Source of the DNA: an uncultured Acidobacteriota bacterium
GTDB lineage: Bacteria > Acidobacteriota > Polarisedimenticolia > J045
Reading direction: 5' to 3'
Assembly: GCA_963702425.1 (NCBI GenBank)
Contig: CAVPCQ010000038.1
Location: 4,992-68,991, forward strand
Length of the DNA stretch: 64,000 nucleotides
A program made the translations under genes and the position numbers. Below the pieces are notes generated by a model. The model had not been told where the DNA came from, made no database searches, and saw nothing but the letters and a program-made list of their open reading frames with translations. Of the stretch, positions 28,946 through 58,061 are shown in pieces (within the stretch, counting starts at the first letter, position 1; each line of letters starts with the position of its first letter).

Positions 28946-31900
28946 TCAGCGCGCCGGCAGCCCCTTTCTCGGCAGCGGCGGGACCGGCGGGAGCGGCCGC
29001 GGATCCTCGGCGATCTTCTTCCGCAGCAGCGCGATCGCCGCCTCGAGCTGCGCGTCCTTCCCATCCCACGTCGCACGGGGAAGGTTGTCGACGACGACGT
29101 CGGGCTCGACGCCGTGCCCCTCGATCAGCCAGGTCCCTTCCGGACCGAAGACGCCGTACTCCGCCGCCGTCGCGATCCCGCGGTCGACCAGGACGTTGCT
29201 CGACGAGAGCCAGATCTCGCCGCCCCAGGTCCGCGTGCCGAGGACCGGCCCGAGCTCGAGCCGCCGGAATCCCTCCGCGAACGCCTCGCCGTCGGAGGAG
29301 GTCCCCTCGTCCACCAGCACGACGACGTGGCCGCGGAAGGCGTACTGCATGTTCCAGGACGGCGCGCGCCCGGCGCGCTGGCTCCAGTAGAACCAGGCCC
29401 GGCGCAGCAGGCGCGACAGGATCCAACTGTCGATGTTGCCGCCCCGGTTGTGGCGCACGTCGATGATCAGTCCCTGGCGCGTGAACGAGGGGTAGTAGTC
29501 GCGGGCCCACGCCGAGTAGTCGTCGCCCCCCATCGCGCGCAGATGGACGTAGCCGATCGTGCTGCCGCTCGCCTCGTCTGTCCTGAGGCGGCGCGTGTAC
29601 TCCCACTCGTGGTAGCGGCGGTCCGCGTCATCGTCGGGCGTCAGCGGCTGGACGATCACCTCGCGCGGCGCGCCGCCGCCGGCGGGCTTGACCGAGAGCA
29701 GCACCTGGCGGCCCGCCTTGGCGCGCAGCAGCGCGCCCGGATCGGGCGACGAGAGGGTCGCGACGCCGTCGATCGCCAGGATCACGTCCCCCGGCTTCAC
29801 GTCGACCCCCGGCCGCGCGAGCGGCGAGGCCAGCTCCGGCCGGTCGGGATCGGACCGGTAGATCGACTCTACGACGAGCCCGCCCCGCTCCGGGTCTCGG
29901 GCGAGCCGCGCTCCGAGGAAAGCCGGGGCCGGCTCGACGTCTCCCTTCCGCGCGTCGCCCCCGTAGACGAAGGTGTGCAGCGCCTCGACCTCGCTGACCA
30001 TCTGCGCCAGCAGGTCGGACAGCTCGGCCCGGCTGTGGACGCGGTCGACGAGCGGCAGGTAGCGCGCCTTCATCCCGCTCCAGTCGATCCCGTGCATCGC
30101 CTGGTCATAGAAGTAGTCGCGCTCGAGGCGCCAGGCCTCGTTGAACATCTGCCGCCACTCCTCCCGCGGGTCGACCGGCAGCGTGAAGGCCGTGAGATCG
30201 ACCTTCTTCTTGTCGAGGTCGGTGACCGGCGCGGCCGCGGCGTCGAAGACGTAGAGCGCGTCGTCCTTGCGGACGAGGAGCTTCTTGCCGTCCGCGCTGG
30301 GCTCGGCCGAGAGCACGCCGGCGAGCACCGTCTTGACCTCCGGCTTCTCGTTCGTGATCTCGAGCGCCTGGAGGTCCGCCTTCGCGCGCTCGCCGGCGGT
30401 CGACGACAGCCAGTAGAGCGCCTTCTCGGTGACGAACAGGCCGCGGAAGTTGCCGGGCGGGACGGGGACCTCGAGCAGCCGCGCCGCGAGGCCGTCGGGA
30501 TCGACGGTGGTGGGGGGCGGGGTGTCTGGCTTGACCTCCGGCGAGCCGTCGCTGCGCTTTCCGCTGCTCTTTCCCTGCTCTCCCTTCTCTGTCTTGTCGC
30601 GCTTCTCGCCGTTCTCCCGGTTCGCGTCCTTCACCTCCTTCTTCTCTGCAGGGGGATGCAGCTCGTCCGCCGGCTCGAACGGCGACCGCAGGTCCGGCGC
30701 CAGCGCCAGCAGGTAGACGCGCGTCGTCTTGTCGAAGTAGGGCTCGGGCTGCATCAGTCCCCAGGGGCCCGGGACGAGCGAATTGAGGTTCCGCTCGGAG
30801 AGGAAGGCGAGCCACTTTCCATCCGCCGAGAACGCCGGGGACGAACTGTCGTAACGGTCGGTCGTCGCGAAGAGCGCCGCGCCCCCCTCGACCGGGTAGA
30901 GCTTCACGCGCCGGTTGAGGTTGTCGCCGGGGACCGCGGCCGCGAGCCAGCGACCGTCGGGCGACCAGGCGAGGTCCTCGATGTCGGCAATCGCGGACTC
31001 CTCCAGCTTCCGGGTCGCGCCCGTCGCCTGGTCGGTGATCCACAGCCGCTGGTTCTTGTCGGTGTGCGCGATCCGCTTGCCGTCGGGGGAGGGGAGCGCG
31101 ATCCAGCGCAGCACCTCGCCGCCCCTCGTCACCTGACGCGCGTCGCCGACGCCGTTGGCGGGAAGCGTCCAGAGCTCGACCTCGCCCGACTCGTCCGAGA
31201 GCGCGACCAGCGACTTGCCGTCGGGCAAGAAACGCGCGTCGCGGAAGCGCACGCCCGGCCGGCGCGAGGCCTCGACGAATCGCCCGGGGCCCACCGGTGC
31301 GACGAACACCTGCCCGCGCGCGGTGAGCACCACGCGCTTGCCGTCGGGCGACAGGTGCGCCGAGGTCGTCCAGGTGAGCGGATCCTTGACGGTCCGCTCG
31401 CGCGTCTGGTCGAGGTCGGAGCCGAGCGTGATCGCCAGCGGCGTCTCCGTTCCGGCGGCGATGTCGAAGAGGAACAGGTCGGCGCCGGAGCGGAAGGCGA
31501 TCCGTCCCGCGTCGAGCGACGCCTCGGCGATTTCCCAGCTGCGCTTGGTGTGCTGCCGCAGATCCTTCCCGTCGCCGGTCATCGACCAGAGGTTCATCGT
31601 GCCGTCGCGATCGGAGAGGAAGTAGACCCGCTCGTTCCAGACCATCGGGCCCTTGCTCGTGCCGGGGTAGTCGCCGGTCAGGAGCACCGCTTCCGCGGCG
31701 CCGCCGTCCCAGCGCCAGATCTGCTGCACGGTGCCGCCGCGGTAGCGCTTGGTGTGGCTCCCCTGGAACGGCAGCCGCGTGAAGTAGAGCGCCGTTCCGG
31801 CCTCGTTCCACGCGCCGTCGGCGGCCTGCGCCAGCGGGATCGGCTGCGACGATCCCGACGCCGGATCGAGCGTCTCGAGCTGGACGGACGGCAGGGTGGA

Positions 31901-32350
31901 GCGCGCGGTGGTGGCGTAGAGCACGCGGCCGTCCTTCGTCCAGCCGGCGACGGTCGGCGTGCCCCCTCCACTCGACGCCTGCCAGGTGTGCCGCATCGGC
32001 GGGCCGCCGGCGAGAGGCATCGTGTAGACCTCGGCCGGGCCGTCGTAGCGGGCGACGAAGGCCACGGTCGTCCCGTCGGGCGAGATCGCCGGGGATCCCT
32101 CTCCGGCGGCGTCGGTCGTCAGCCGGGCCGCGACCCCGCCGCGCGCGGAGACCCTCCATAGGTCCCCCTCCGAGACGAACACGATCGTCTCGCCGCGCAG
32201 CGAGGGCTGGCGGTAGTAACCGAGCGGGGCCGCGGGAGGTGCGGGGCGGGCCGCCGCAGCGGCGGTTTCAGCGGCCGGGGACGTCGTTCCGGTCGCAAGG
32301 CCCGGAAGCGCAAGAGACAGACCACACGCGAGCAGGGCAGAGCGCGTCAT
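28946..32350 (-). CDS. tricorn-protease-like S41 peptidase (TolB-like beta-propellers + PDZ + S41 domain)
   Basis: 1134 aa from ATG 32350 (GGAGG upstream) with a signal peptide. The N-terminus reads YYRQPSLRGETIVFVSEGDLWRV...SPAISPDGTTVAF, typical of tricorn homologues. A PDZ-like GDVILAIDG is present, and VVVLVDEGTSSDGEAF..GTRTWGG lies at the S41 core. Confidence 0.8.
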   Translation of the reverse strand: MTRSALLACGLSLALPGLATGTTSPAAETAAAAARPAPPAAPLGYYRQPSLRGETIVFVSEGDLWRVSARGGVAARLTTDAAGEGSPAISPDGTTVAFVARYDGPAEVYTMPLAGGPPMRHTWQASSGGGTPTVAGWTKDGRVLYATTARSTLPSVQLETLDPASGSSQPIPLAQAADGAWNEAGTALYFTRLPFQGSHTKRYRGGTVQQIWRWDGGAAEAVLLTGDYPGTSKGPMVWNERVYFLSDRDGTMNLWSMTGDGKDLRQHTKRSWEIAEASLDAGRIAFRSGADLFLFDIAAGTETPLAITLGSDLDQTRERTVKDPLTWTTSAHLSPDGKRVVLTARGQVFVAPVGPGRFVEASRRPGVRFRDARFLPDGKSLVALSDESGEVELWTLPANGVGDARQVTRGGEVLRWIALPSPDGKRIAHTDKNQRLWITDQATGATRKLEESAIADIEDLAWSPDGRWLAAAVPGDNLNRRVKLYPVEGGAALFATTDRYDSSSPAFSADGKWLAFLSERNLNSLVPGPWGLMQPEPYFDKTTRVYLLALAPDLRSPFEPADELHPPAEKKEVKDANRENGEKRDKTEKGEQGKSSGKRSDGSPEVKPDTPPPTTVDPDGLAARLLEVPVPPGNFRGLFVTEKALYWLSSTAGERAKADLQALEITNEKPEVKTVLAGVLSAEPSADGKKLLVRKDDALYVFDAAAAPVTDLDKKKVDLTAFTLPVDPREEWRQMFNEAWRLERDYFYDQAMHGIDWSGMKARYLPLVDRVHSRAELSDLLAQMVSEVEALHTFVYGGDARKGDVEPAPAFLGARLARDPERGGLVVESIYRSDPDRPELASPLARPGVDVKPGDVILAIDGVATLSSPDPGALLRAKAGRQVLLSVKPAGGGAPREVIVQPLTPDDDADRRYHEWEYTRRLRTDEASGSTIGYVHLRAMGGDDYSAWARDYYPSFTRQGLIIDVRHNRGGNIDSWILSRLLRRAWFYWSQRAGRAPSWNMQYAFRGHVVVLVDEGTSSDGEAFAEGFRRLELGPVLGTRTWGGEIWLSSSNVLVDRGIATAAEYGVFGPEGTWLIEGHGVEPDVVVDNLPRATWDGKDAQLEAAIALLRKKIAEDPRPLPPVPPLPRKGLPAR

Positions 32351-32447
32351 CGAACCTCCGGGTGCGTCGAGTGCCGCCGGGATGATAGCGGAGCGGGAGC
32401 GGCACGCGTCGCCCGCCGGAGGAGAGCGATCCGAGCCGGCGGCCGCA

Positions 32448-32531
32448 CGGCCGCTCCGCGCCGCCGCTCGTCCCGCGGCCGCTCCGCGCCGCCGTTCGTC
32501 CCGCGGCCGCTGCGCGCCGCCGTTCGTCCCG
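32448..32531. repeat. 28-bp tandem repeat, three copies
   Basis: CGGCCGCTCCGCGCCGCCG(C/T)TCGTCCCG occurs at 32448-32475, 32476-32503 and 32504-32531 (the third copy has TG for TC), followed by a partial copy. It lies in the non-coding gap between the divergent tricorn and TonB-C genes. Confidence 0.85.
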
Positions 32532-32557
32532 CGGCTGCCGATACAGGGGGCCCGTCC

Positions 32558-32787
32558 GAATGCACATCCGGCGACAGAGGACCCCCTCGAATGCACACAT
32601 CGTCCCCAGCGACGGCGTGATGACTCCCACCTTGAGCCCAAGTTCACCGCAAAGAGTCGCCGTGCGCCACCGCCGACCGGGTTCCGGTCGCGATCTTCCT
32701 GCCGGCGAGGGCCTGCTCAGCGCGGCGGTGTGCGTTCGAGGGGGTCCTCTGTCGCCGGATGTGCATTCGAGGGGGTCCTCTGTCGCC
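32558..32787. repeat. 40-nt inverted repeat (39/40 match) flanking a 131-nt spacer; the right arm is partly duplicated
   Basis: The left arm at 32558-32597 is GAATGCACATCCGGCGACAGAGGACCCCCTCGAATGCACA. Its reverse complement matches 32729-32768 (TGTGCGTTCGAGGGGGTCCTCTGTCGCCGGATGTGCATTC). The unit TGTGC(G/A)TTCGAGGGGGTCCTCTGTCGCC occurs twice on the right (32729-32756, 32760-32787). Confidence 0.85.
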
Positions 32788-32972
32788 ACGCCGACATTCG
32801 GCTGTGAACGCTGTCGCGGTCTCTCGGCCCGGCCGCGGATCGTCGGGTCGGCCGGGGCCCCGCTTCGACCTGTCGCCGCCACGTCGCATGCCGGCGCCGA
32901 CCACGGCGCCGGCCTCCGTGCCGCGTCGGTCCGGAACGTCGCGACCGGCAAGGGAGCGGGCCGCTCCCGGGC

Positions 32973-32978
32973 TAGAAT
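32973..32978 (+). promoter_or_regulatory. candidate -10 element TAGAAT (context GCTAGAATCC) upstream of the TonB-C gene
   Basis: It lies 39 nt upstream of GTG 33017. The same TAGAATCC octamer lies 47 nt upstream of the S9 peptidase gene (60057). No convincing -35 was seen. Confidence 0.25.
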
Positions 32979-33016
32979 CCGGACGGACCGGTTCCCGTCC
33001 CCGACGGAGTCCCATC

Positions 33017-33896
33017 GTGCGCCGCATGCTCCAGTTGCTGTCATCAGGGTGCCTCGCCGCACTCGCGGGCGGGTGCGCCGCCGCCGATTCGCCGGCAGCC
33101 GAGGAATGGGCGCGCTGGATGCTGCGCGGGCTGCCCGGGGTCTCGGTCGCGTGCACCCCGAAGCTGGAAAGCGACCCAGCCATGACCGTCCACTGCGTCG
33201 ACCTGGAGATGCCGTGGAACGAGTTTCGGCGGGAGTGGGAGTCCGCCCTCCGGTCGGCCGGCCGGTCGTTTCCCGACACGGGGTGGCTCGATGAGGGGAA
33301 GCTGAAGCGCCGGCGCTACATCGTCTTCGACGTGCCCGTCGACGTTTTTCGAGACTCCGCGGGCTCGGGCCTGGTGATCGCGGTCCCGCGCTTCTTCCTG
33401 GATTGCGACGAGGTGAACTGGGGCGATGTGATCGACCTCGACCAGGACACCTCGGGGGAGATCACGCGCCCGCAGCTCGAGCACCGGGTCGAGGCCGTCT
33501 ACCCGGAACGCGAGCGCCGGGCCAGGCGCCTAGTGTCACGTAACCGAAGTCACGCTAACGCCGGGGCGGTCTGGCAAGCCGATGGCTGCGTTGCTCCTCC
33601 TTGCTGTACGGTTCAGTACAGCGTCGTCGTCGCGCCTTGCCCTCGGCTCACCATCCTCGCCCTGGCATTAACCTGACTTCGGTTACGTGACACTAGGCAG
33701 GGTCTGGATGATGGGACTGATCCGCACGGATGGGCACGTCGCGCCGCTCTGCATCAAGTCGTCGGAGGGCGCCACGCCCGCGATGAACTCCGCCGCGCTG
33801 CGCGCGCTCGCGCAGTGGCGCTACGCGCCGGCGCTGCGGGACGGCCAGCCGATCGCGGTGCGATTCGTGGTGGCCATCAGTTTCTCCGTCCGCTAG
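33017..33896 (+). pseudogene. lipoprotein with TonB C-terminal domain, split by a MITE insertion
   Basis: GTG 33017 (GGAG upstream); lipobox LLSSGC / ALAGGC. The upstream part ends ...EITRPQLEHRVEAVYPERERRARR, then reads into the MITE and stops at 33676. Track ORF 33687..33896 (..GRVWMMGLIRTDGHVAPLCIKSSEG..AALRALAQWRYAPALRDGQPIAVRFVVAISF) is the rest of a TonB_C fold. Removing 163 bp rejoins the two frames. Confidence 0.8.
33530..33696. mobile_element. MITE copy 1 (159-bp core flanked by CTAG on both sides)
   Basis: Perfect 23-nt terminal inverted repeats: CTAG-TGTCACGTAACCGAAGTCA ... TGACTTCGGTTACGTGACA-CTAG. There is a central hairpin, GCTGTACggttcaGTACAGC. The element is too short to encode a transposase. 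A second copy at 55685-55851 differs at two positions (33553 and 33555, C vs T). Confidence 0.85.
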
Positions 33897-33916
33897 ACGC
33901 GGCGGCGCACCGGCAC

Positions 33917-35623
33917 CTACGGTGCACGCGAACCGACGCGCAGCATCGCCGCCGCTCCGATGCGCCGCTCGTCCCCCCGTCGCCCCTCGACGCGCCAGTA
34001 GAGCGAGCCGCCGTCGCGCGCCAGCGCCGTCGCGCGGCGCCACTGGTCGGCGCCCGGGGTCCACGACGTCGCACGGGTCCAGCGGCCGGAGGTCACGATC
34101 CGCCCGGCGGCCTGCGGGTCGGCGCTGAAGACGACGCGGCATTCGTCCATTCCGGCCGCGTCCCAGGAGAACGTCGGGAGCCGGTCGGGCACGGCCGCCG
34201 CCGCGCCGCCGCCCGCCGCCAAGCCCGCCGCCGTGTCCACCACCGCGCCATCGCCCGGCGCCAGCGGCCGCGGCGCGGTGTCGTCCGGGTACCACCGGGG
34301 GAACGCGTCCCCCCGCGGCCAGGCCTCGGCGCGCGCCGCGGCGCGCCGCAGCACGGACTCGACCTCCCACAGGAACGCCTCGGTCTGCACCGGCTTCGTA
34401 TTGAAGACCGCCGCGAACGCGCGGCCGTCGGTGATCCGCATCAGCAGCGCCGTCGAGCCGAAGAGCGAGCCGCCGTGCCAGACGGCGGCGCGCGGCCCGT
34501 CGGGACGCACGTACCAGCCCAGGCCGTACCAGGCATCGCGCAGGATCCAGGTCGATAGCTGCGGGCGGAGCAGCATCAGGCGCTGGGTACCGGGCGAAAG
34601 GAGATCCGGCCGCTCCGGCAGCCCGTCCACCGCCGTCATGAAGCGCACGAGGTCGATCGCGGAAGCGGTCCAGCCGCCCGCGCTGTCCATCGCCTCGATG
34701 TAAAACCCGCCATCCGGCCAGGCGACCAGGTCCTCCTCGTCCGGGAAGACCGAGCGGACGAGCGCGCGAACTCCGGAGTCGTAGTAGCGCACCTCGCCGG
34801 CTGGCCGGTCCGCGGGCCGGGAGCGCCCGATCCGCATCCGCGTGATCCCGAGCGGGGCGAGGATTGCGCTCCGCACGTACTCCTCGTAGCCCATCCCGGA
34901 AGCGTGCTCGATGACCCGGCCGAGCAGCGCGTAGCCGAAGTTGGAGTAGGAAAAGCGGCCGCCCGGCGAGAAGTCGAGCGGCCGACCCTTCACGAAGCGG
35001 ATCACCGTGCGCGCGTCGGCGGGGGCGGGGGCGTCGACGGCCTGCGCGGTGAGGCGCGGCGCGAACATCGGGTCGAGCGAGAGCAGGCGATCCCAGCCGG
35101 CGGAGTGGTTGAGCAGGTCGCGCACCGTGATCCGCTCCAGCCGCGGGTCGGGGCTGGCGCCGGCGGGAGGAGCGAGGTCGGGGAACATCGGGAAGACGCG
35201 CTCGTCGAGGCGCAGCCTCCCGTCCTCGACCAGTTCGAGGATCGCGGTCGCGGTCACCGTCTTGGAGACGCTGCCGATCCGGAAGACCGCATCCGGGGCG
35301 ACGGGCAGGCCGCGCGCGACGTCGGCGTAGCCGAAGCCGCGAGCGTAGACGAGGCGGTCGTCGCGGATCACGGCCAGCGCGCCGCCGGGGATCTCCCAGC
35401 GCTCCATCAGCGCCAGCATCTCGCGGTCGAAAGCGGCCAGGCCGGGCACGGCCGTGCCGGTGATCGGGAAGGGGTGCGTCTCGCGGGCGACGGGGGTCCG
35501 GCCGGGGGCGGGGGCCGGGGCGGCGGCAGGCAGGGCCGCGGGAGGCGGGGCAGCGCACGGTCCCGGCGTGGCCACGAGGCCCGTCGAGAGGAAGGCGACG
35601 ATCGCGAGGCGCCGGCCGGGCAT
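33917..35623 (-). CDS. serine hydrolase, class C beta-lactamase/DD-peptidase family, with C-terminal extra domain
   Basis: 568 aa from ATG 35623 (GGAGG upstream) with a signal peptide. S-x-x-K motif: FRIGSVSKTVTA. Y-x-N motif: FSYSNFGYALLG. The C-terminal ~150 aa lie beyond the catalytic domain. Confidence 0.8.
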   Translation of the reverse strand: MPGRRLAIVAFLSTGLVATPGPCAAPPPAALPAAAPAPAPGRTPVARETHPFPITGTAVPGLAAFDREMLALMERWEIPGGALAVIRDDRLVYARGFGYADVARGLPVAPDAVFRIGSVSKTVTATAILELVEDGRLRLDERVFPMFPDLAPPAGASPDPRLERITVRDLLNHSAGWDRLLSLDPMFAPRLTAQAVDAPAPADARTVIRFVKGRPLDFSPGGRFSYSNFGYALLGRVIEHASGMGYEEYVRSAILAPLGITRMRIGRSRPADRPAGEVRYYDSGVRALVRSVFPDEEDLVAWPDGGFYIEAMDSAGGWTASAIDLVRFMTAVDGLPERPDLLSPGTQRLMLLRPQLSTWILRDAWYGLGWYVRPDGPRAAVWHGGSLFGSTALLMRITDGRAFAAVFNTKPVQTEAFLWEVESVLRRAAARAEAWPRGDAFPRWYPDDTAPRPLAPGDGAVVDTAAGLAAGGGAAAAVPDRLPTFSWDAAGMDECRVVFSADPQAAGRIVTSGRWTRATSWTPGADQWRRATALARDGGSLYWRVEGRRGDERRIGAAAMLRVGSRAP

Positions 35624-35684
35624 CCGCGAGACCTCCGGGAGCGGGATTATGCCCGCCCCGGGGCCCCCCGGCTGCGCCGCCCGA

Positions 35685-35798
35685 AGGGGCCGGCCTTCGT
35701 GCCGGACCGACCGACGACGGGCAACCAGCGGGCCGGCACAGAGGCCGGCCCGACCGACGACAGGCAACCTGCGGGCCGGCACAGAGGCCGGCCCCTAC
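35685..35798. repeat. REP-like hairpin array (three hairpins; the two right-hand units have a 43-bp period)
   Basis: GGCCGGCcttcgtGCCGGAC sits at 35688-35707 in the opposite orientation. GGCCGGCACAGAGGCCGGCC then occurs at 35731-35750 and 35774-35793, each preceded by CGACCGACGAC(G/A)GGCAACC(A/T)GC. The array ends ...GGCCGGCCCCTAC at 35798, 8 nt before the stop of the M14 gene. Confidence 0.8.
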
Positions 35799-35805
35799 GG
35801 CGTCA

Positions 35806-38800
35806 TCAGGGAGTCGGCTCCTCGCCCGAGGTGCCGGCGGCGTTCTTCGCCGCGACCAGGTAGAACGACGAACCGCTCGCGGCCCCGCCGGTCGTGTCGC
35901 GCCACGCGGCCGACGTCGGTTCGCCGACCGCCCCGTACCCGCCGGTCGGCGTCCCCGAGCGGTAGACCGGGTAGGTGCGGGCCGCGTCGTGCAGTGCGTC
36001 GACCGGCGGTGCGGTCCACGACAGCCGGACGTCTCCCGCCCGCCGCTCCGCACGCAACGTTCCGCCGACCGGGTTGGGCGGCTTCGTCTCCGAGGGCGTG
36101 AACGGGACGCAGCCGTCGAACTGCCGCACCACGCGGACGTCGTCGATCAGCAGCTCGGTGAGCGGGTCGGCGCTGATCTGCGAGGTCTCCTCGGCCTCGA
36201 AGCGCACTCGCATGCTGGCGGTCGGTGTGAGGAGCGAGGTGAGGTCGATCGTCACATCGGTCCAGGCGGCCGCATTCGTGGACAGGTCCTCGATCGTGGC
36301 ATAGGTCGTGCCCCCGTCGGTGCTGACCTTCGCACGCGCGTTGGAGGCTTGCAGGAAACCGACTCCGCTGCGGTGGTAGAAGCGCGAGAAGTACAGCATC
36401 AAACGACCGCCCCCGAGGCCGCTGAAGACCGGGGAGCTGATGTGGACCCGGCCCCGGTCGACGTCGCCGGTGTGGGGGTCGAATCCAGGGCCGACGAAGG
36501 CGTTGCCGGTGACCCAGCAGATCGTGCCGGGCGCCGGCGTGCGGTCGTCCTCGGGCTGGACCGGACCGACGGACGGGTCGGTGAAGCCGTTCGGGTCCAG
36601 CCGCTCGAACCGGCCGCTGATCGTGGTGCCGCCGACGCTCCACCCCTTGTCGGTCTGGAAGTTGTCCGAGAGCAGCGTCTGCTCGGTCGGATCGCCGATC
36701 ACGATCGTGAAGTTGCTGCTCGTCGTGCCGCCATCCTGCCAGCGGGTCGTCAGCCGCAGCGTGACGTCCGGCCCGCACGGGCCGGTGAGCTCCACGGAGA
36801 AGTGCGGTGCCAGCGAGAACGCGCTCGTCCCGGCCGGGATGTCGGGGTAGTCGGCCACGGCGTCGTGGACCACCACGCCGGAGCTGATCGCCGAGAGCAC
36901 CGCGCTCACCGCCGTCGCGCCCGCGCCGCCGCTGTTGACGGCCTCGATCCGCAGGACCGCCGTCTCGCCCGGGTCGAGCAGGCCGTCGCCGTTGCCGTAG
37001 GCCGGGTTCGAGTCGTCGATGACGTGGCTCTTGTACTTGACGCGCGGCGTCGAGTTGCGAAGCTGCTCGCCGCAGATCGCGAGGTCGTCGAGGTAGAAGC
37101 CGGCCCCGGTCGTGCCGCTGTCTGAGGACAGCGAGAACCGGACGTAGACCTCCGACTCACCGTCGGCGAGGCCGGAGATGTCGTAGCGCACCGGGACCCA
37201 GGCCGTGTCGCGCCCGAATCCTTCCCACACGACCTGCCAGCCGTTCGAACCGGCGGTCTCGATCTCGACCCGCGCGATGTCGAAGCCCGTCTCGCTCCTG
37301 AGCCAGCGCGCGAAGCGCAGCTCTGAGTTCCGCAGCGTCGAGAGGTCGTAGGGACCGGCGGTCAGGAAGTAGGCCGCGCTGTCGGAGTAGTTGCCGTCGA
37401 GGTTGGTGCCGTAGACGTTGCTGCCGGTGTAGGCCGCGGTCGGGCCCGGTCCGGACGGGCTCGGCACCCCGAACTCCCAGCCGTTCGTGAAGGCGCCGTT
37501 ATCGATCTGCCAGGCCGGGTCGGCGTCCAGGGTCTCTTCGACCGAGGGACAGGCGACATTCCCGGTGGTGACGCGCAGCGTCCAGCTCCGCGCGGCGCCG
37601 CACGGTTCCGGGCTGCCGCCGAAATCGACGCTGATCGTCGCCTCGTAGCCGTCCGGCGTGCCGGCGGCGAAGGCGATCCGCACCGGGTCGCCGGCGGCGG
37701 CCTCGCGGGTCTCGCCGGCGGCGAGGCTGCCGAAGCTCGGTCGTGCCGTCGAGGATCGTCAGGTACGGGTCGGAGGACGTCACCGTGGCCGTCAGGCCGG
37801 CGAGGGCGTCACCGGTCGCGTAGGCCGAGAGGTAACAGGTCGACCGTCTCGCCCGGGTCGATCCGGCCGTCGCCGTCGCCGCCGCTCTCGACCACCCGCA
37901 CGCCGCGCACGGCCGCGTCGGCCGAGCCGGCCGGGACCAGGAAGACCTCGCGAGCGAACGGCGCGAAGCCGACGTCGGTCGGCCAGGCCTGGGAGGCGTA
38001 GCCGCTCCGCGACGCCTGCAGCGTGTAGCTGCCGGCGAGCACGGGCCAGTCGTAGCGCGCGAAGTCGGGCGTCGTCGTGCGCGGCAGCTCGCCGTTGGTG
38101 AAGACCTGCTCGGCGAGGCCGATGGTCGTCCCGGGCAGCGCAGCGCCGGTGCAGGCGTCCTTCACGTGACCGGTCAGCCGCGGGCCGTCGAGCAGCTCGA
38201 GCGTGTAGCGCCAGCCCGCGCGGGCCCGCAGGACGGTCGTCTCGCGCCACGTCGCGTAGTCGGGCTGGAACCCCTGGCTGTCGGCGTTCAGCTCGTACGT
38301 CACGCCGACCGCCCCCAGCTCGCCGTACATCCAGCCGTCGGTGTCGCCGTCGACCGAGTAGAGCAGCTCCCACGGCGTGCCGAACTGGAACCAGGTCCCG
38401 GCGACGTCGCCCTGCATCCGGGACGCGGCCACGTTGGCCAGCTCGCGGAACATCCGGAAGTCGGGCTGAGCCACGGAGGAGCTCTCGCAGCCGTAGGGAT
38501 GGAGCGTGTACCCGCCGTAGGTGTGGTACGAGATGTAGTAGACGGGGCGCTGCTGCCGGGCGAGGTTGATCAGCCCGATGTTCGTCGGCTCCGAGCCGGG
38601 GCTCGGGCCGCGGTAGGTGTCGGAGCTGGGGCTGCCCGACGAGCCGCCGCAGGCGTTCCAGGTCAGCGGGTAGTTGCGGTTGAGGTCGACGCCGAAGCTG
38701 CCGTCGCCGTTGTTGCGGCGGTTCTTGCGCCAGTTCGACTCGTTGGTGAACACGTAGCTGGCGCCGTCCGGGTTGTGCGACGGCAGGACCCAGATCTCGC

Positions 38801-53012: not shown

Positions 53013-55688
53013 GTGGAGTCGAGCCGGCCATCTGCGATCGGCCTGAGCGTCGTCGTCGCCGTGCTGCTCACGACGGCCCCCGGCGTGCGCGGCGCGCGCG
53101 AGTTGACGCTCGACGAACGGGTCGATGCCCGGTGGGCGATCGAACAGGTCTTCTGGAACCACCGCATCTGGCCGGCGGAGAATCCCGGACCGAAGCCCTC
53201 CCTCGAGCAGGTTGTTTCCAGGCTCGCGCTCCGAGCGCGGGTGGAGCGCGAGCTCGAAGCCTTCGCCGCCGCCGAACGGTCGATCGGCCGCGCGATCACG
53301 GCCGACGAACTCCAAGACGAGGTCGCGCGCATGACCCGCGACAGCCGGGATCCGGAGATGCTGCGCGAGCTCTTCCGCGCCCTGAATGACGACCCCGAGC
53401 TGATCGCGGAGTGCCTGGCGCGCCCGCTCGTCGCGGATCGGCTGCGGCAAGGCGCGGCCCCCGCCGGATCGAAACTCCTGCCGCCGCTGGAGACGAAGCG
53501 GCGCCCGTGGTCGTTCTGCGACTACGACACCTGGCGCCAGATGACACCGTCCCCGCTCGCGCCGCGCAGTCACCACAGTGCGGTTTGGACCGGGAGCGAG
53601 ATGATCGTCTGGGGCGGTGCAGAGCCCGGGGCCACGCAGACGGGGGCGATCTACACCCCCGCGATGGGTTACTGGTTCTTCACGTCGATCACTCGCTTTA
53701 CGCCCGAGCCGCGCCTCGAGCACACCGCGGTCTGGACCGGGAGGGAGATGATCGTCTGGGGCGGCCGCGACCCCGCGATGGGCGAGGGCCAGTGGCTCCA
53801 GACCGGCGGCCGGTTCGATCCCGCCACCGGTGCGTGGACTCCGGTCTCCGTCCCGGCCGAAGCGCCTTCGGCACGCGCGCGCCACACCGCCGTCTGGACG
53901 GGGAGCGAGATGGTGATCTGGGGCGGCGAGGACCGAGCGGGCTCGCTCGACAGCGGCGGCCGCTACGACCCGGCGACGGAGCGCTGGCGCGGGGTGGGGC
54001 AGGCCGGATCGTTCATGCCCGGGCCGCGCAGCGGACACACGGCGACCTGGACCGGGGGCGAGCTGCTCATTTGGGGCGGCGAGTACAAGGACGCGTCCGG
54101 CGGCCGTCGCGCCCTGGGAGACGGCGCACGCTGGTCAGCGCTCGCGGACGCCTGGACTCCCGTCACGGCGGCCGGCGCGCCGAGTCCCAGGCGCGGACAC
54201 ACCGCGATCTGGACCGGAAGCGAGTTGATCGTCTGGGGCGGCCTCGATGATTCTGGAAACCCACCGACCGACGCGGGTGCGCGCTACGACCCGGCCACCG
54301 ACGGCTGGCGCGCCGTCAGCGCCGTCGACGCGCCATCCACCCGGGAGCTCCACAGCGCCGTGTGGACGGACCAGGAGATGGTCGTCTGGGGTGGCCTCGA
54401 TACGACCGGAGCGCCGCCGCTCGACGGCGGGGGCCGTTACGACCCGAAGAACGACCGCTGGGGCGCAACCACGGCGGATCGTGCGCCGGGCGGCCGGGCG
54501 CATCACACGGTCGTGTGGAACATCGGGGAGATGATCGTCTGGGGCGGGAGCGGGGGCGTCGCAGGCAGTCTGCTGGGCGATGGCGGCCGATACTGCGCGC
54601 AATGCCCGTACTGGTTCCCGGATGCCGACGGCGACGGGTTCGGTCTCTACGGAACCGGCGTGATCGCGTGCGAGCAGCCGGCTGCATATGTGGACAACTT
54701 CGACGACTGTGACGATACCGACGCGAGCATTCACCCGGGTGCAGAAGAGACCTGCAACCTGAAGGACGACAACTGCAGGGAGGGCGCGGACGAGGGCGTC
54801 ATGACACGGTTCTACCGGGACCGGGACGGCGACGGGTTCGGGCGAGCGGATGACGGCTGGTCCGCCTGCACCGCTCCCGAAGGCTACGTCGCGGACGCGA
54901 CCGACTGCGACGACTCGCGCGCGGCCGTCCATCCCGGAGCCGAGGAGCGGTTCCTGCTGGACAACTGCGATGACGGTCTCGACAACGACTGCGACGGCCT
55001 GTCCGACGACAGGGAGCCGGACTGCGCCAGCAGCATCACCAAGCCGGACTTCCCGTGGGCGCCGCCGCTGATCTACGCCGGACGTCCCGCCGAGCTGCGC
55101 ACCGGCGGTGCGCGATGCGATCTTGGCGATCCGGTCGAGTACCAGTTCCGATGGGGAGACGGCGCACTCTCCGAGTGGACCACCACCGGCCGAGCGAGCC
55201 ACACCTGGGTGGAGCCAGGCGAGTACGCCGTGCCGGCCCGGGCACGCTGCGGCGGTCACCCGGAGATCCTGTCGCCTTGGTCGACACCCGTCAGGATCCG
55301 CGTCAGCGCGCAACCCACGAGCGGGCCCGATCTCGTCGCCAGCCCGCGTTCCGTTCGGCAGGACTGCAAGCGGCGGAGCGGGGTCGAGGTCTGTACGCTC
55401 AAGGCCCGGATCGCGGTGCGCAACACCGGCGATGATCCCACTTGGTCGAGCCGGCTCGATTGGCTCGTCTCAGATGCGTTGGTCTGGGAGGAAGGCGACA
55501 AGCCCCTCTCCTCGGTCTTCGTGCCGGAGCTGAGGCCAGGCCGGACAAAGACCGTCAAGATCCTGTACACAATCCCCGGCGGGACGAGCGGGCGCGGAAA
55601 GTACCTCCTGGGACGATTGGACCCGGCCAACCGCATCCGGGAGCGGGACGAGCTGAACAACGACTTCGCGGTCGCGATTGGGCCCTAG
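53013..55688 (+). CDS. secreted Kelch-repeat protein with Cys-rich putative metal-binding repeats and PKD/CARDB-like C-terminal domains
   Basis: 891 aa from GTG 53013 with a signal peptide. At least seven repeats of H(T/S)AVWTG.E(M/L)(I/V)(V/I)WGG are present. Two to three D.DGDG(F)G.......C....(Y)V....DCDD.....HPGAEE motifs follow, then beta-sandwich domains. The stop TAG 55686-55688 lies in the MITE-flanking CTAG. Confidence 0.75.
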   Translation: MESSRPSAIGLSVVVAVLLTTAPGVRGARELTLDERVDARWAIEQVFWNHRIWPAENPGPKPSLEQVVSRLALRARVERELEAFAAAERSIGRAITADELQDEVARMTRDSRDPEMLRELFRALNDDPELIAECLARPLVADRLRQGAAPAGSKLLPPLETKRRPWSFCDYDTWRQMTPSPLAPRSHHSAVWTGSEMIVWGGAEPGATQTGAIYTPAMGYWFFTSITRFTPEPRLEHTAVWTGREMIVWGGRDPAMGEGQWLQTGGRFDPATGAWTPVSVPAEAPSARARHTAVWTGSEMVIWGGEDRAGSLDSGGRYDPATERWRGVGQAGSFMPGPRSGHTATWTGGELLIWGGEYKDASGGRRALGDGARWSALADAWTPVTAAGAPSPRRGHTAIWTGSELIVWGGLDDSGNPPTDAGARYDPATDGWRAVSAVDAPSTRELHSAVWTDQEMVVWGGLDTTGAPPLDGGGRYDPKNDRWGATTADRAPGGRAHHTVVWNIGEMIVWGGSGGVAGSLLGDGGRYCAQCPYWFPDADGDGFGLYGTGVIACEQPAAYVDNFDDCDDTDASIHPGAEETCNLKDDNCREGADEGVMTRFYRDRDGDGFGRADDGWSACTAPEGYVADATDCDDSRAAVHPGAEERFLLDNCDDGLDNDCDGLSDDREPDCASSITKPDFPWAPPLIYAGRPAELRTGGARCDLGDPVEYQFRWGDGALSEWTTTGRASHTWVEPGEYAVPARARCGGHPEILSPWSTPVRIRVSAQPTSGPDLVASPRSVRQDCKRRSGVEVCTLKARIAVRNTGDDPTWSSRLDWLVSDALVWEEGDKPLSSVFVPELRPGRTKTVKILYTIPGGTSGRGKYLLGRLDPANRIRERDELNNDFAVAIGP

Positions 55689-55847
55689 TGTCACGTAACC
55701 GAAGTCATGTTAACGCCGGGGCGGTCTGGCAAGCCGATGGCTGCGTTGCTCCTCCTTGCTGTACGGTTCAGTACAGCGTCGTCGTCGCGCCTTGCCCTCG
55801 GCTCACCATCCTCGCCCTGGCATTAACCTGACTTCGGTTACGTGACA

Positions 55848-55851
<4 letters not shown>
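55685..55851. mobile_element. MITE copy 2 (same orientation as copy 1)
   Basis: It is identical to 33530-33696 except at 55708 and 55710 (T instead of C). It is flanked by CTAG at 55685-55688 and 55848-55851, which hold the stop codons of the two convergent neighbouring genes. Confidence 0.85.
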
Positions 55852-57572
<1,721 letters not shown>

Positions 57573-57573
57573 T

Positions 57574-57596
57574 CGCGCATCTTACGGAGATGCGCG
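57574..57596 (-). promoter_or_regulatory. perfect 9-bp hairpin abutting the permease start codon
   Basis: CGCGCATCT-tacgg-AGATGCGCG ends 1 nt from ATG 57572. There is no Shine-Dalgarno sequence in between. The TAA stop (57582-57584) of the upstream ORF lies at the stem-loop junction. Confidence 0.3.
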
Positions 57597-58061
57597 TGGT
57601 AGGGGGGGTGGGGATGGGGGGGTGTGGGGGCACAGAGGCGGCCTACAGGCGGCACCGACAGGTCGAAACGTCGGCTGCGTCGTCGGGCCGGCACGGAGGC
57701 GGGTTTCTACAGGAAGGTGAGGGGGGACGGAGTTGCGCGTCAGGTTGCGCGAGCCGGCCACGGCCAGCGTCCCGTCGCGCGGCCGGTACTCGAGCAGCTC
57801 GAGCACCTCGTCCCCGCGCGGCGCCAGGGGATGCGCCTTCGGGTGGCGCACGATGCCGAACAGCACCCGCCGAACGCTCCCGTCGGCATCCAGCTCATGC
57901 TCGAGGATCGTCGCGCGACCGCGGTGGTGGGGCTTCAGGCGCCCGGCCGCGAGCAGCTCGGGCCGCGCCGCGAAGAGCTCGTCCAGCGCGGCGCGGGCCG
58001 CGGCCAGCGCGCGGCGGCGGGCGTTCCAGCGGGCGAGCGCGGCGGGGAGCCGGGTCAGCAC
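57582..58061 (-). CDS. hypothetical protein (weak call)
   Basis: 159-aa ORF from GTG 58061 with no obvious RBS. The first ~110 aa look protein-like (..ILEHELDADGSVRRVLFGIVRHPKAHPL..EVLELLEYRPRDGTL..). The C-terminal part runs through REP-like and C-rich sequence. The stop is 9 nt from the permease start. Confidence 0.3.
   Translation of the reverse strand: MLTRLPAALARWNARRRALAAARAALDELFAARPELLAAGRLKPHHRGRATILEHELDADGSVRRVLFGIVRHPKAHPLAPRGDEVLELLEYRPRDGTLAVAGSRNLTRNSVPPHLPVETRLRAGPTTQPTFRPVGAACRPPLCPHTPPSPPPLPRASP
57602..57630 (+). repeat. G-quadruplex-type motif (G7-T-G4-AT-G7-TGT-G5)
   Basis: GGGGGGGTGGGGATGGGGGGGTGTGGGGG on the + strand. That strand is the template strand for the flanking minus-strand genes. 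Confidence 0.6.

Follow-up and report, generated by a model that had tools for sequence, protein, structure and literature searches.

In the 64-kb stretch of DNA analysed here, referred to below as the window, a gene whose exported product has a TonB_C domain is very probably interrupted at codon 172 by a non-autonomous MITE of the IS630 family. The element measures 159 nt between its flanking CTAGs, or 161 nt when the terminal G and C are included. The 5' open reading frame (ORF) runs 48 codons into the MITE and stops there; the signal peptide and the N-terminal domain, along with the first 12 TonB_C residues, are separated from the remaining TonB_C domain. Because the frame shifts, the 5' ORF stops within the element and the TonB_C domain is split, the gene is most probably a recent pseudogene, and loss of its function would be expected. 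An earlier note on this DNA had placed the MITE inside a TonB_C-domain gene; this reading is confirmed by the anatomy of the element, its second copy, the restored reading frame and the orthologues. The coordinates of the ORFs and of the element all hold on re-reading of the sequence, and the main features are the following.

33006-33009, + strand: GGAG, a Shine-Dalgarno-like sequence read from the sequence, 7 nt upstream of the GTG start
33017-33529, + strand: 5' part of the disrupted gene, codons 1-171, frame 2, ending in AVYPERERRARR
33530-33533, no strand: left CTAG, target site; TA 33531-33532 is the probable duplicated dinucleotide
33530-33676, + strand: element-encoded tail of 48 codons, LVSRNRSHANAG...LALALT, followed by TGA at 33674-33676
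33534-33692, no strand: MITE core, 159 nt, non-coding
33534-33552 and 33674-33692: terminal inverted repeats of the MITE, perfect, 19 nt each
33687-33896, + strand: mechanical ORF of 69 codons, frame 0, with its GTG inside the right terminal repeat; no evidence of use
33693-33696, no strand: right CTAG; TA 33694-33695 is the probable duplicate
33693-33896, + strand: 3' part of the disrupted gene, codons 172-238 and TAG stop, holding most of the TonB_C domain
55685-55851, no strand: second MITE copy (copy B), core 55689-55847, with CTAG on both sides

The core of the element begins with the 19 nt TGTCACGTAACCGAAGTCA and ends with their exact reverse complement. Allowing mismatches gives a longer inverted repeat of 41 nt at 90%. 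The element is near-palindromic over its whole length; a single strand folds as one hairpin with a dG of -51.9 kcal/mol (z -9.35). Its GC content is 61%, compared with 72% for the window. The terminal 19-mer has four matches in the 64-kb window, whereas shuffles give an expectation of 0.01, and two of these matches delimit copy B. The two window copies differ at only 2 of 159 bases, and both carry CTAG on each side. The element thus has the properties by which MITEs are recognized: it is short, lacks coding capacity of its own, carries terminal inverted repeats and occurs in several near-identical copies at unrelated sites, and an autonomous element with the same ends exists in the form of the insertion sequence (IS) on contig L009 described below. 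No Rfam family was found for the MITE; within the stretch 32000-34500, the sole Rfam matches (E-values of 0.22 and 0.5) lie outside the element and score far under the gathering scores. The window MITE showed neither an outward promoter nor any other regulatory feature. A transposase is likewise missing from the 64-kb window, where the best match to the L009 transposase has an E-value of 1.6 and is not significant.

The MITE also occurs in the uncultured Acidobacteriota MAG MFD02979.bin.1.81, which holds two complete copies, 96-99% identical to those of the window and in both orientations, as well as one 31-nt remnant left by internal deletion. All three MAG copies have CTAG on both sides. The 31-nt remnant (L008, 2770-2808) consists of TGTCACGTAACC joined to TGACTTCGGTTACGTGACA, again between two CTAGs, and appears to have been made by a deletion between two TAACC pentamers. 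The 19-mer scans of genomes and metagenomes also hit contigs of low GC content (L004, L006 and L010-L013), which have nothing in common with the MITE beyond the 19-mer and are taken as chance or unrelated matches.

A scan of metagenomes yielded the autonomous partner of the family. On contig L009, with a GC content of 64.5%, a 351-aa ORF is followed directly by ...TTAACATGACTTCGGTTACGTGACA, and this right end of the IS matches the MITE end without a mismatch over 25 nt, with more similarity after a 2-nt indel. The product of the ORF is an IS630-type DDE transposase: it matches the NCBIfam model for IS630 family transposases (NF033545) at 227.1 bits, where the cut-off is 100, and the Pfam families DDE_3 (61 bits), HTH_32 (66 bits) and HTH_29, and no IS5 transposase match was obtained for it. 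The closest relatives of the L009 transposase, at 94% and 82% identity, are found in the complete elements L015 and L016, which have cores of 1132 nt, related inverted repeats and CTAG on both sides. Both MITE ends resemble the right end of the IS. The similarity of its ends to the right end of the IS on L009, together with the CTAG flanks of the full-length L015 and L016, identifies the window element, to judge from these alignments, as a MITE that descends from an IS630-family insertion sequence or at any rate has its ends in common with one. The right flank of the IS on L009 (1050-1084) is CTGG and not CTAG, with TG in place of TA, and the left end is lost at the contig end; the CTGG could be a mutated duplication or the mark of an insertion at a site other than TA.

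The interrupted gene starts at GTG 33017, and the gene calls of its orthologues begin at the same codon. Its 5' part encodes an N-terminus resembling a signal peptide, a domain of ~130 aa without a family match and, at its very end, the 12 residues with which the TonB_C match begins (AVYPERERRARR). Together with the element-encoded tail, it yields a truncated product of 219 aa, which is present as P0003 in a public protein collection. The net gain of 163 nt caused by the insertion corresponds to a frame shift of +1. The two halves lie in frames 2 and 0 and are rejoined in one frame by in-silico excision, as had been described in the earlier note: removal of 163 nt gives cgc-cta-ggc-agg-gtc and a single open frame. 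The length of this frame had been given as 239 aa and is corrected here, the recount giving 238 codons and hence a product of 238 aa.

The repaired 238-aa protein contains a whole TonB_C domain that scores above the curated cut-offs. It matches Pfam TonB_C (PF03544) at 51.9 bits (cut-off 24.6 bits), with residues 160-236 covering profile positions 3-78 of 79, and TIGR01352 (tonB_Cterm) at 35.2 bits (cut-off 27.1 bits). The proposed TonB_C assignment is thereby borne out, the profile match bridging the junction. In addition, residues 155-226 align across the junction with the C-terminal domain of Vibrio TonB2 (PDB 2k9k). Since the matches to both the TonB_C profile and PDB 2k9k bridge the junction, the insertion divides the domain close to its N-terminal edge, with the YP-containing segment on one side and the G-x-V strand on the other. 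The C-terminal fragment alone reaches 40.7 bits against TonB_C and covers profile positions 16-78 only, and the N-terminal fragment alone matches no Pfam profile.

The repaired protein is not a canonical TonB. Against the full-length TonB equivalog models NF008083 and NF008081, it scores ~12 bits, compared with cut-offs of 448 and 377, and only its C-terminal 80 residues align. Residues 25-150 have no family match, and an AlphaFold2 model of the repaired protein, calculated with a 19-sequence alignment, was uninformative (mean pLDDT 42.5). The N-terminus of the gene product looks like a signal peptide. The further description of the product as a lipoprotein could not be upheld: Cys20 is replaced by Phe or Ser in most of 17 orthologues and Cys12 by Ile in two, so the sequences share no conserved lipobox cysteine. 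A conserved lipobox is not supported because the candidate cysteines vary among the orthologues.

Comparison with relatives makes it possible to describe the gene before the insertion. A search of a large protein collection returned three clusters: P0001 (98% identity, 235 aa) and P0002 (84% identity, 238 aa), both uninterrupted, and P0003, which is the 219-aa truncated product with the element-encoded tail. The listing of cluster members provided 17 orthologues with 84-98% identity, all colinear with the repaired ORF without gaps; 16 of the 17 are continuous through the junction, the exception being P0006, which ends before it. At the DNA level, the window sequence with 163 nt removed aligns with L001, the 98% relative, over 1016 nt in a single block, with 20 mismatches and no gap. 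Because the orthologues are uninterrupted and the DNA alignment is ungapped after removal of the 163 nt, the gene was whole and the MITE arrived later. Two naturally separate genes would, according to the earlier note, have spoken against its reading; the comparison shows the gene to be whole in relatives. The insertion is also likely to be young, given the 2 differences in 159 bases between the window copies and the 6 coding positions, outside the junction, that differ between the gene and its 98% relative. An orthologue of ~90% identity from another metagenome (L014, 100-830) is split mid-gene by a 1-nt deletion, without a MITE, into an upstream half (P0006, 119 aa) and a downstream half that spans the junction (P0005, 118 aa); this split is either a second independent inactivation or a sequencing error.

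The empty site reads CGC GCA GGC AAG in L001, L002 and L014 and CGT GCC GGC AAG in L003, and the residues encoded there are Ala/Thr-Gly-Lys in every orthologue spanning the site, compared with Leu-Gly-Arg in the repaired window allele (CGC CTA GGC AGG). The comparison of filled and empty sites therefore has two sides: removal of 163 nt gives colinearity, but the empty sites are GCAG or GCCG rather than CTAG. They lack TA, and no allele with an empty CTAG was found among the orthologues. Relative to L001, the window allele requires G>C and C>T together with a nearby A>G. The window and L001 differ at nine coding positions, and these three changes (33693, 33694 and 33700) are among them, all at most 8 nt from the junction; by a rough binomial estimate, a cluster of this kind has a chance of ~2 in 10,000. 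The C-TA-G is created by precisely two of the three. Most likely, substitutions in this lineage (GCAG to CTAG, Ala to Leu) had produced the CTAG target by the time of the insertion, possibly as one tandem GC>CT change, and the third change (AAG>AGG) may reflect chance or drift after inactivation. As ISY100 duplicates whatever dinucleotide is struck, the TA on both flanks points to a target that already contained TA.

Two other accounts of the site were tried and rejected. One supposes a 167-nt insert without duplication and a separate 4-nt deletion of GCAA; this deletion would not adjoin the insertion point, and the evidence from the family as a whole favours a CTAG/TA target. The other supposes an ancestral insertion followed by excision in the relatives, against which stand 17 diverse orthologues that keep an intact, conserved Ala/Thr-Gly-Lys at the site.

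The length of the duplication is best considered for the family as a whole. TA flanks both ends of all five MITE copies and of the two complete IS copies, in each case within CTAG. Members of the IS630 family move by cut and paste and duplicate TA (PMC2170065). In vitro, the ISY100 transposase cleaves precisely at the 3' ends of the element and, at the 5' ends, 2 nt further inside, and it duplicates TA (PMC2170065), and preferential transposition to TA in 5'-CTAG-3' is named in the title of Tenzen and Ohtsubo 1991 (cited in PMC2170065). By analogy with these systems, the true duplication is most probably TA within a preferred CTAG, with element ends G...C. Under the TA model, the element proper would comprise 161 nt, G...C, at 33533-33693, and the target would be C-TA-G. 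The 163 inserted bases had been explained earlier as the core plus one CTAG; that description stands as far as the outcome of excision is concerned, while a duplication of the whole CTAG gives way to the more probable duplication of TA, as in IS630. If the MITE moves as the family does, its terminal repeats would be bound by a DDE transposase of the IS630 family, supplied in trans, which would also cut the MITE out. The transposase would then join the 3' ends of the MITE to TA, preferably within CTAG, and subsequent repair would duplicate the TA.

The same flanks could be explained by a MITE of the IS5-family type whose duplication comprises all 4 bp of CTAG, rather than by an IS630-type element with TA. 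This type of duplication is known from MITEPsy1, an IS5-related MITE of Pseudomonas syringae with a CTAG/YTAA 4-nt duplication (PMC3189936). CTAG is intact on both sides of every copy and, with G...C ends, the sequence alone fits a 2-bp and a 4-bp duplication alike. However, the sole transposase beside these ends belongs to the IS630 family (NF033545, 227 bits) and has no IS5 match, and these ends and flanks recur in the two full-length relatives, which leaves the IS5 reading with a low probability. Similarly improbable is the proposal that the CTAG flanks, and perhaps also AAG>AGG, were produced during the insertion itself, on a target without prior TA or CTAG. If true, it would mean that an IS630-type element is able to force the flank it prefers onto a non-canonical target, but this conflicts with the in vitro behaviour of ISY100, which duplicates any dinucleotide struck (PMC2170065). 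Insertion of an IS630-type MITE into a pre-existing TA is accordingly the preferred reading of the flanks.

The remaining alternatives concern the gene rather than the target. The window looks like part of a MAG contig, P0003 being recorded on one contig of 68,991 nt that is presumably its source, and the MITE is a multi-copy repeat, so that the element could have been placed in the gene as a repeat-induced artefact of metagenome assembly. Unlike at a chimeric join at a repeat, though, both flanks continue exactly the same gene, the CTAG typical of the family is present on both sides, and the flanking bases differ from the orthologues exactly as needed for the target; an assembly error is therefore judged highly improbable. 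Still less credible, to the point of being nearly negligible, is the existence of two naturally separate genes with an ordinary intergenic repeat between them. Gene callers do list the 219-aa product as a protein of its own (P0003), but the 17 orthologues are single genes, and the TonB_C profile and PDB 2k9k align across the repaired junction.

A split that is functional would require translation of the downstream half. It had been suggested that the MITE supplies a start codon, GTG 33687; by translational coupling, a free C-terminal TonB_C fragment could then be made. This GTG lies in the right terminal repeat, 10 nt after the upstream TGA, and is the first start codon after an in-frame TAA at 33669, and the fragment keeps its 40.7 bits against TonB_C. 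However, no Shine-Dalgarno-like sequence is present in the 12 nt upstream of GTG 33687 and no promoter-like site was found in 32600-34100, and the suggestion finds no support on either count. The fragment would also lack the signal peptide and the first 13 profile positions, while TonB C-terminal domains act in the periplasm. Moreover, the equivalent outward GTG of copy B is the start of a 586-codon ORF (55842-57602, + strand) opposite the permease gene described below, and this ORF is taken to be spurious; all 17 orthologues keep the gene whole. A functional split is consequently regarded as very unlikely, and inactivation of the TonB_C gene by the MITE remains the reading adopted here.

The preference of the element for CTAG also bears on the insertion sites of the family. 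The window contains 12 CTAGs, compared with 70-160 expected from base, dinucleotide or trinucleotide composition, which corresponds to a depletion of ~6- to 13-fold. The two MITE copies account for four of the 12 with their flanks, and several others end long ORFs on either strand. Because CTAG is depleted and most of the remaining CTAGs lie on TAG stops, a CTAG-preferring element is steered to gene ends. Copy B illustrates this, being located exactly at the 4-base CTAG overlap of the TAG stops of two convergent genes: a Kelch/CARDB protein gene (53013-55688, + strand), whose product ends AVAIGP*, and an amino-acid permease gene (55848-57572, - strand; AA_permease_2, 179 bits), whose product ends RLASTC*. 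Both genes keep their stop codon after the duplication, and the position of copy B on the shared CTAG of convergent stops fits a duplication. An empty-site partner for copy B was not found: the C-terminal 250 aa of the Kelch/CARDB protein led only to a 46% relative, and an exact look-up of the permease returned none. The remnant in L008 lies on the stop codon of a cytidine/deoxycytidylate-deaminase-family gene, and the full-length elements in L015 and L016 lie on the TAG stops of their upstream genes. Most copies of the family are thus on TAG stop codons and harmless, and the copy in the TonB_C gene is the exception. This gene offers an example of a CTAG that probably arose inside a coding region and was then struck.

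The surroundings of the interrupted gene contain repeats of other kinds. The upstream intergenic region includes a 28-nt tandem repeat of 3-4 units (32435-32538) and a 56-nt inverted repeat (32543-32598 and 32728-32783), whose arms are 89% complementary and 129 nt apart. Each arm consists of two tandem units of ~31 nt containing TTCGAGGGGGTCCTCTGTCGCC, a 22-mer that within the window is restricted to the region 32435-32790, where it occurs 3 times versus 0 expected. The alignment with L001 runs from 32718 onward and so covers the right arm. The neighbouring genes encode a tricorn-like protease (28946-32647, - strand) with Peptidase_S41, Tricorn_C1, PDZ_Tricorn and PD40 repeats, and a 621-aa beta-lactamase-family serine hydrolase (33917-35782, - strand); neither a TonB-dependent receptor nor ExbB/ExbD genes were found directly beside the disrupted gene.

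At the MITE flank, a very long ORF of 786 codons (33693-36053, - strand) runs opposite the beta-lactamase-family gene. Both this ORF and the 586-codon ORF at copy B are taken to be spurious antisense ORFs, as expected in DNA of 72% GC. Such antisense ORFs at MITE flanks could mislead gene callers. In annotations, a single pseudogene disrupted by a mobile element should take the place of the 219-aa and 69-aa ORFs. The MITE family and its IS630-type partner can also be added to repeat libraries of high-GC Acidobacteriota-type soil and wetland bacteria.

Compared with known proteins, the repaired product resembles TonB C-terminal domain proteins (PF03544, TIGR01352, PDB 2k9k) in having a complete C-terminal TonB_C domain. 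It differs from canonical TonB in that it has neither a proline-rich spacer nor a match to the full-length models. The partner IS resembles IS630 of Shigella sonnei, ISY100 of Synechocystis and the IS630/Tc1/mariner superfamily in its transposase with DDE_3 and HTH domains, and the IS630 family in its size of ~1.13 kb, its terminal inverted repeats and the TA within CTAG on both flanks. The window element, in contrast to these insertion sequences, has no transposase and is only 159-161 nt long.

These properties are shared with bacterial MITEs. Correia elements of Neisseria are another example of MITEs derived from insertion sequences in bacteria. Like MITEPsy1 of Pseudomonas syringae (PMC3189936), the window element is small and non-coding and has inverted repeats and, probably, a short target duplication. 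Multiple near-identical copies, a palindromic structure and landing sites in or beside genes are further points of agreement with bacterial MITEs. A full-text search of the open literature for Acidobacteria, IS630 and MITE returned nothing, which at most indicates that the family is not prominent there. The insertion leaves the knowledge of MITEs and of TonB unchanged and represents a well-documented type of gene inactivation. The difference from known bacterial MITEs lies in the sequence family, so far encountered only in high-GC Acidobacteriota-type genomes; only this element family and its host group are new here, and the kind of mechanism is already known.
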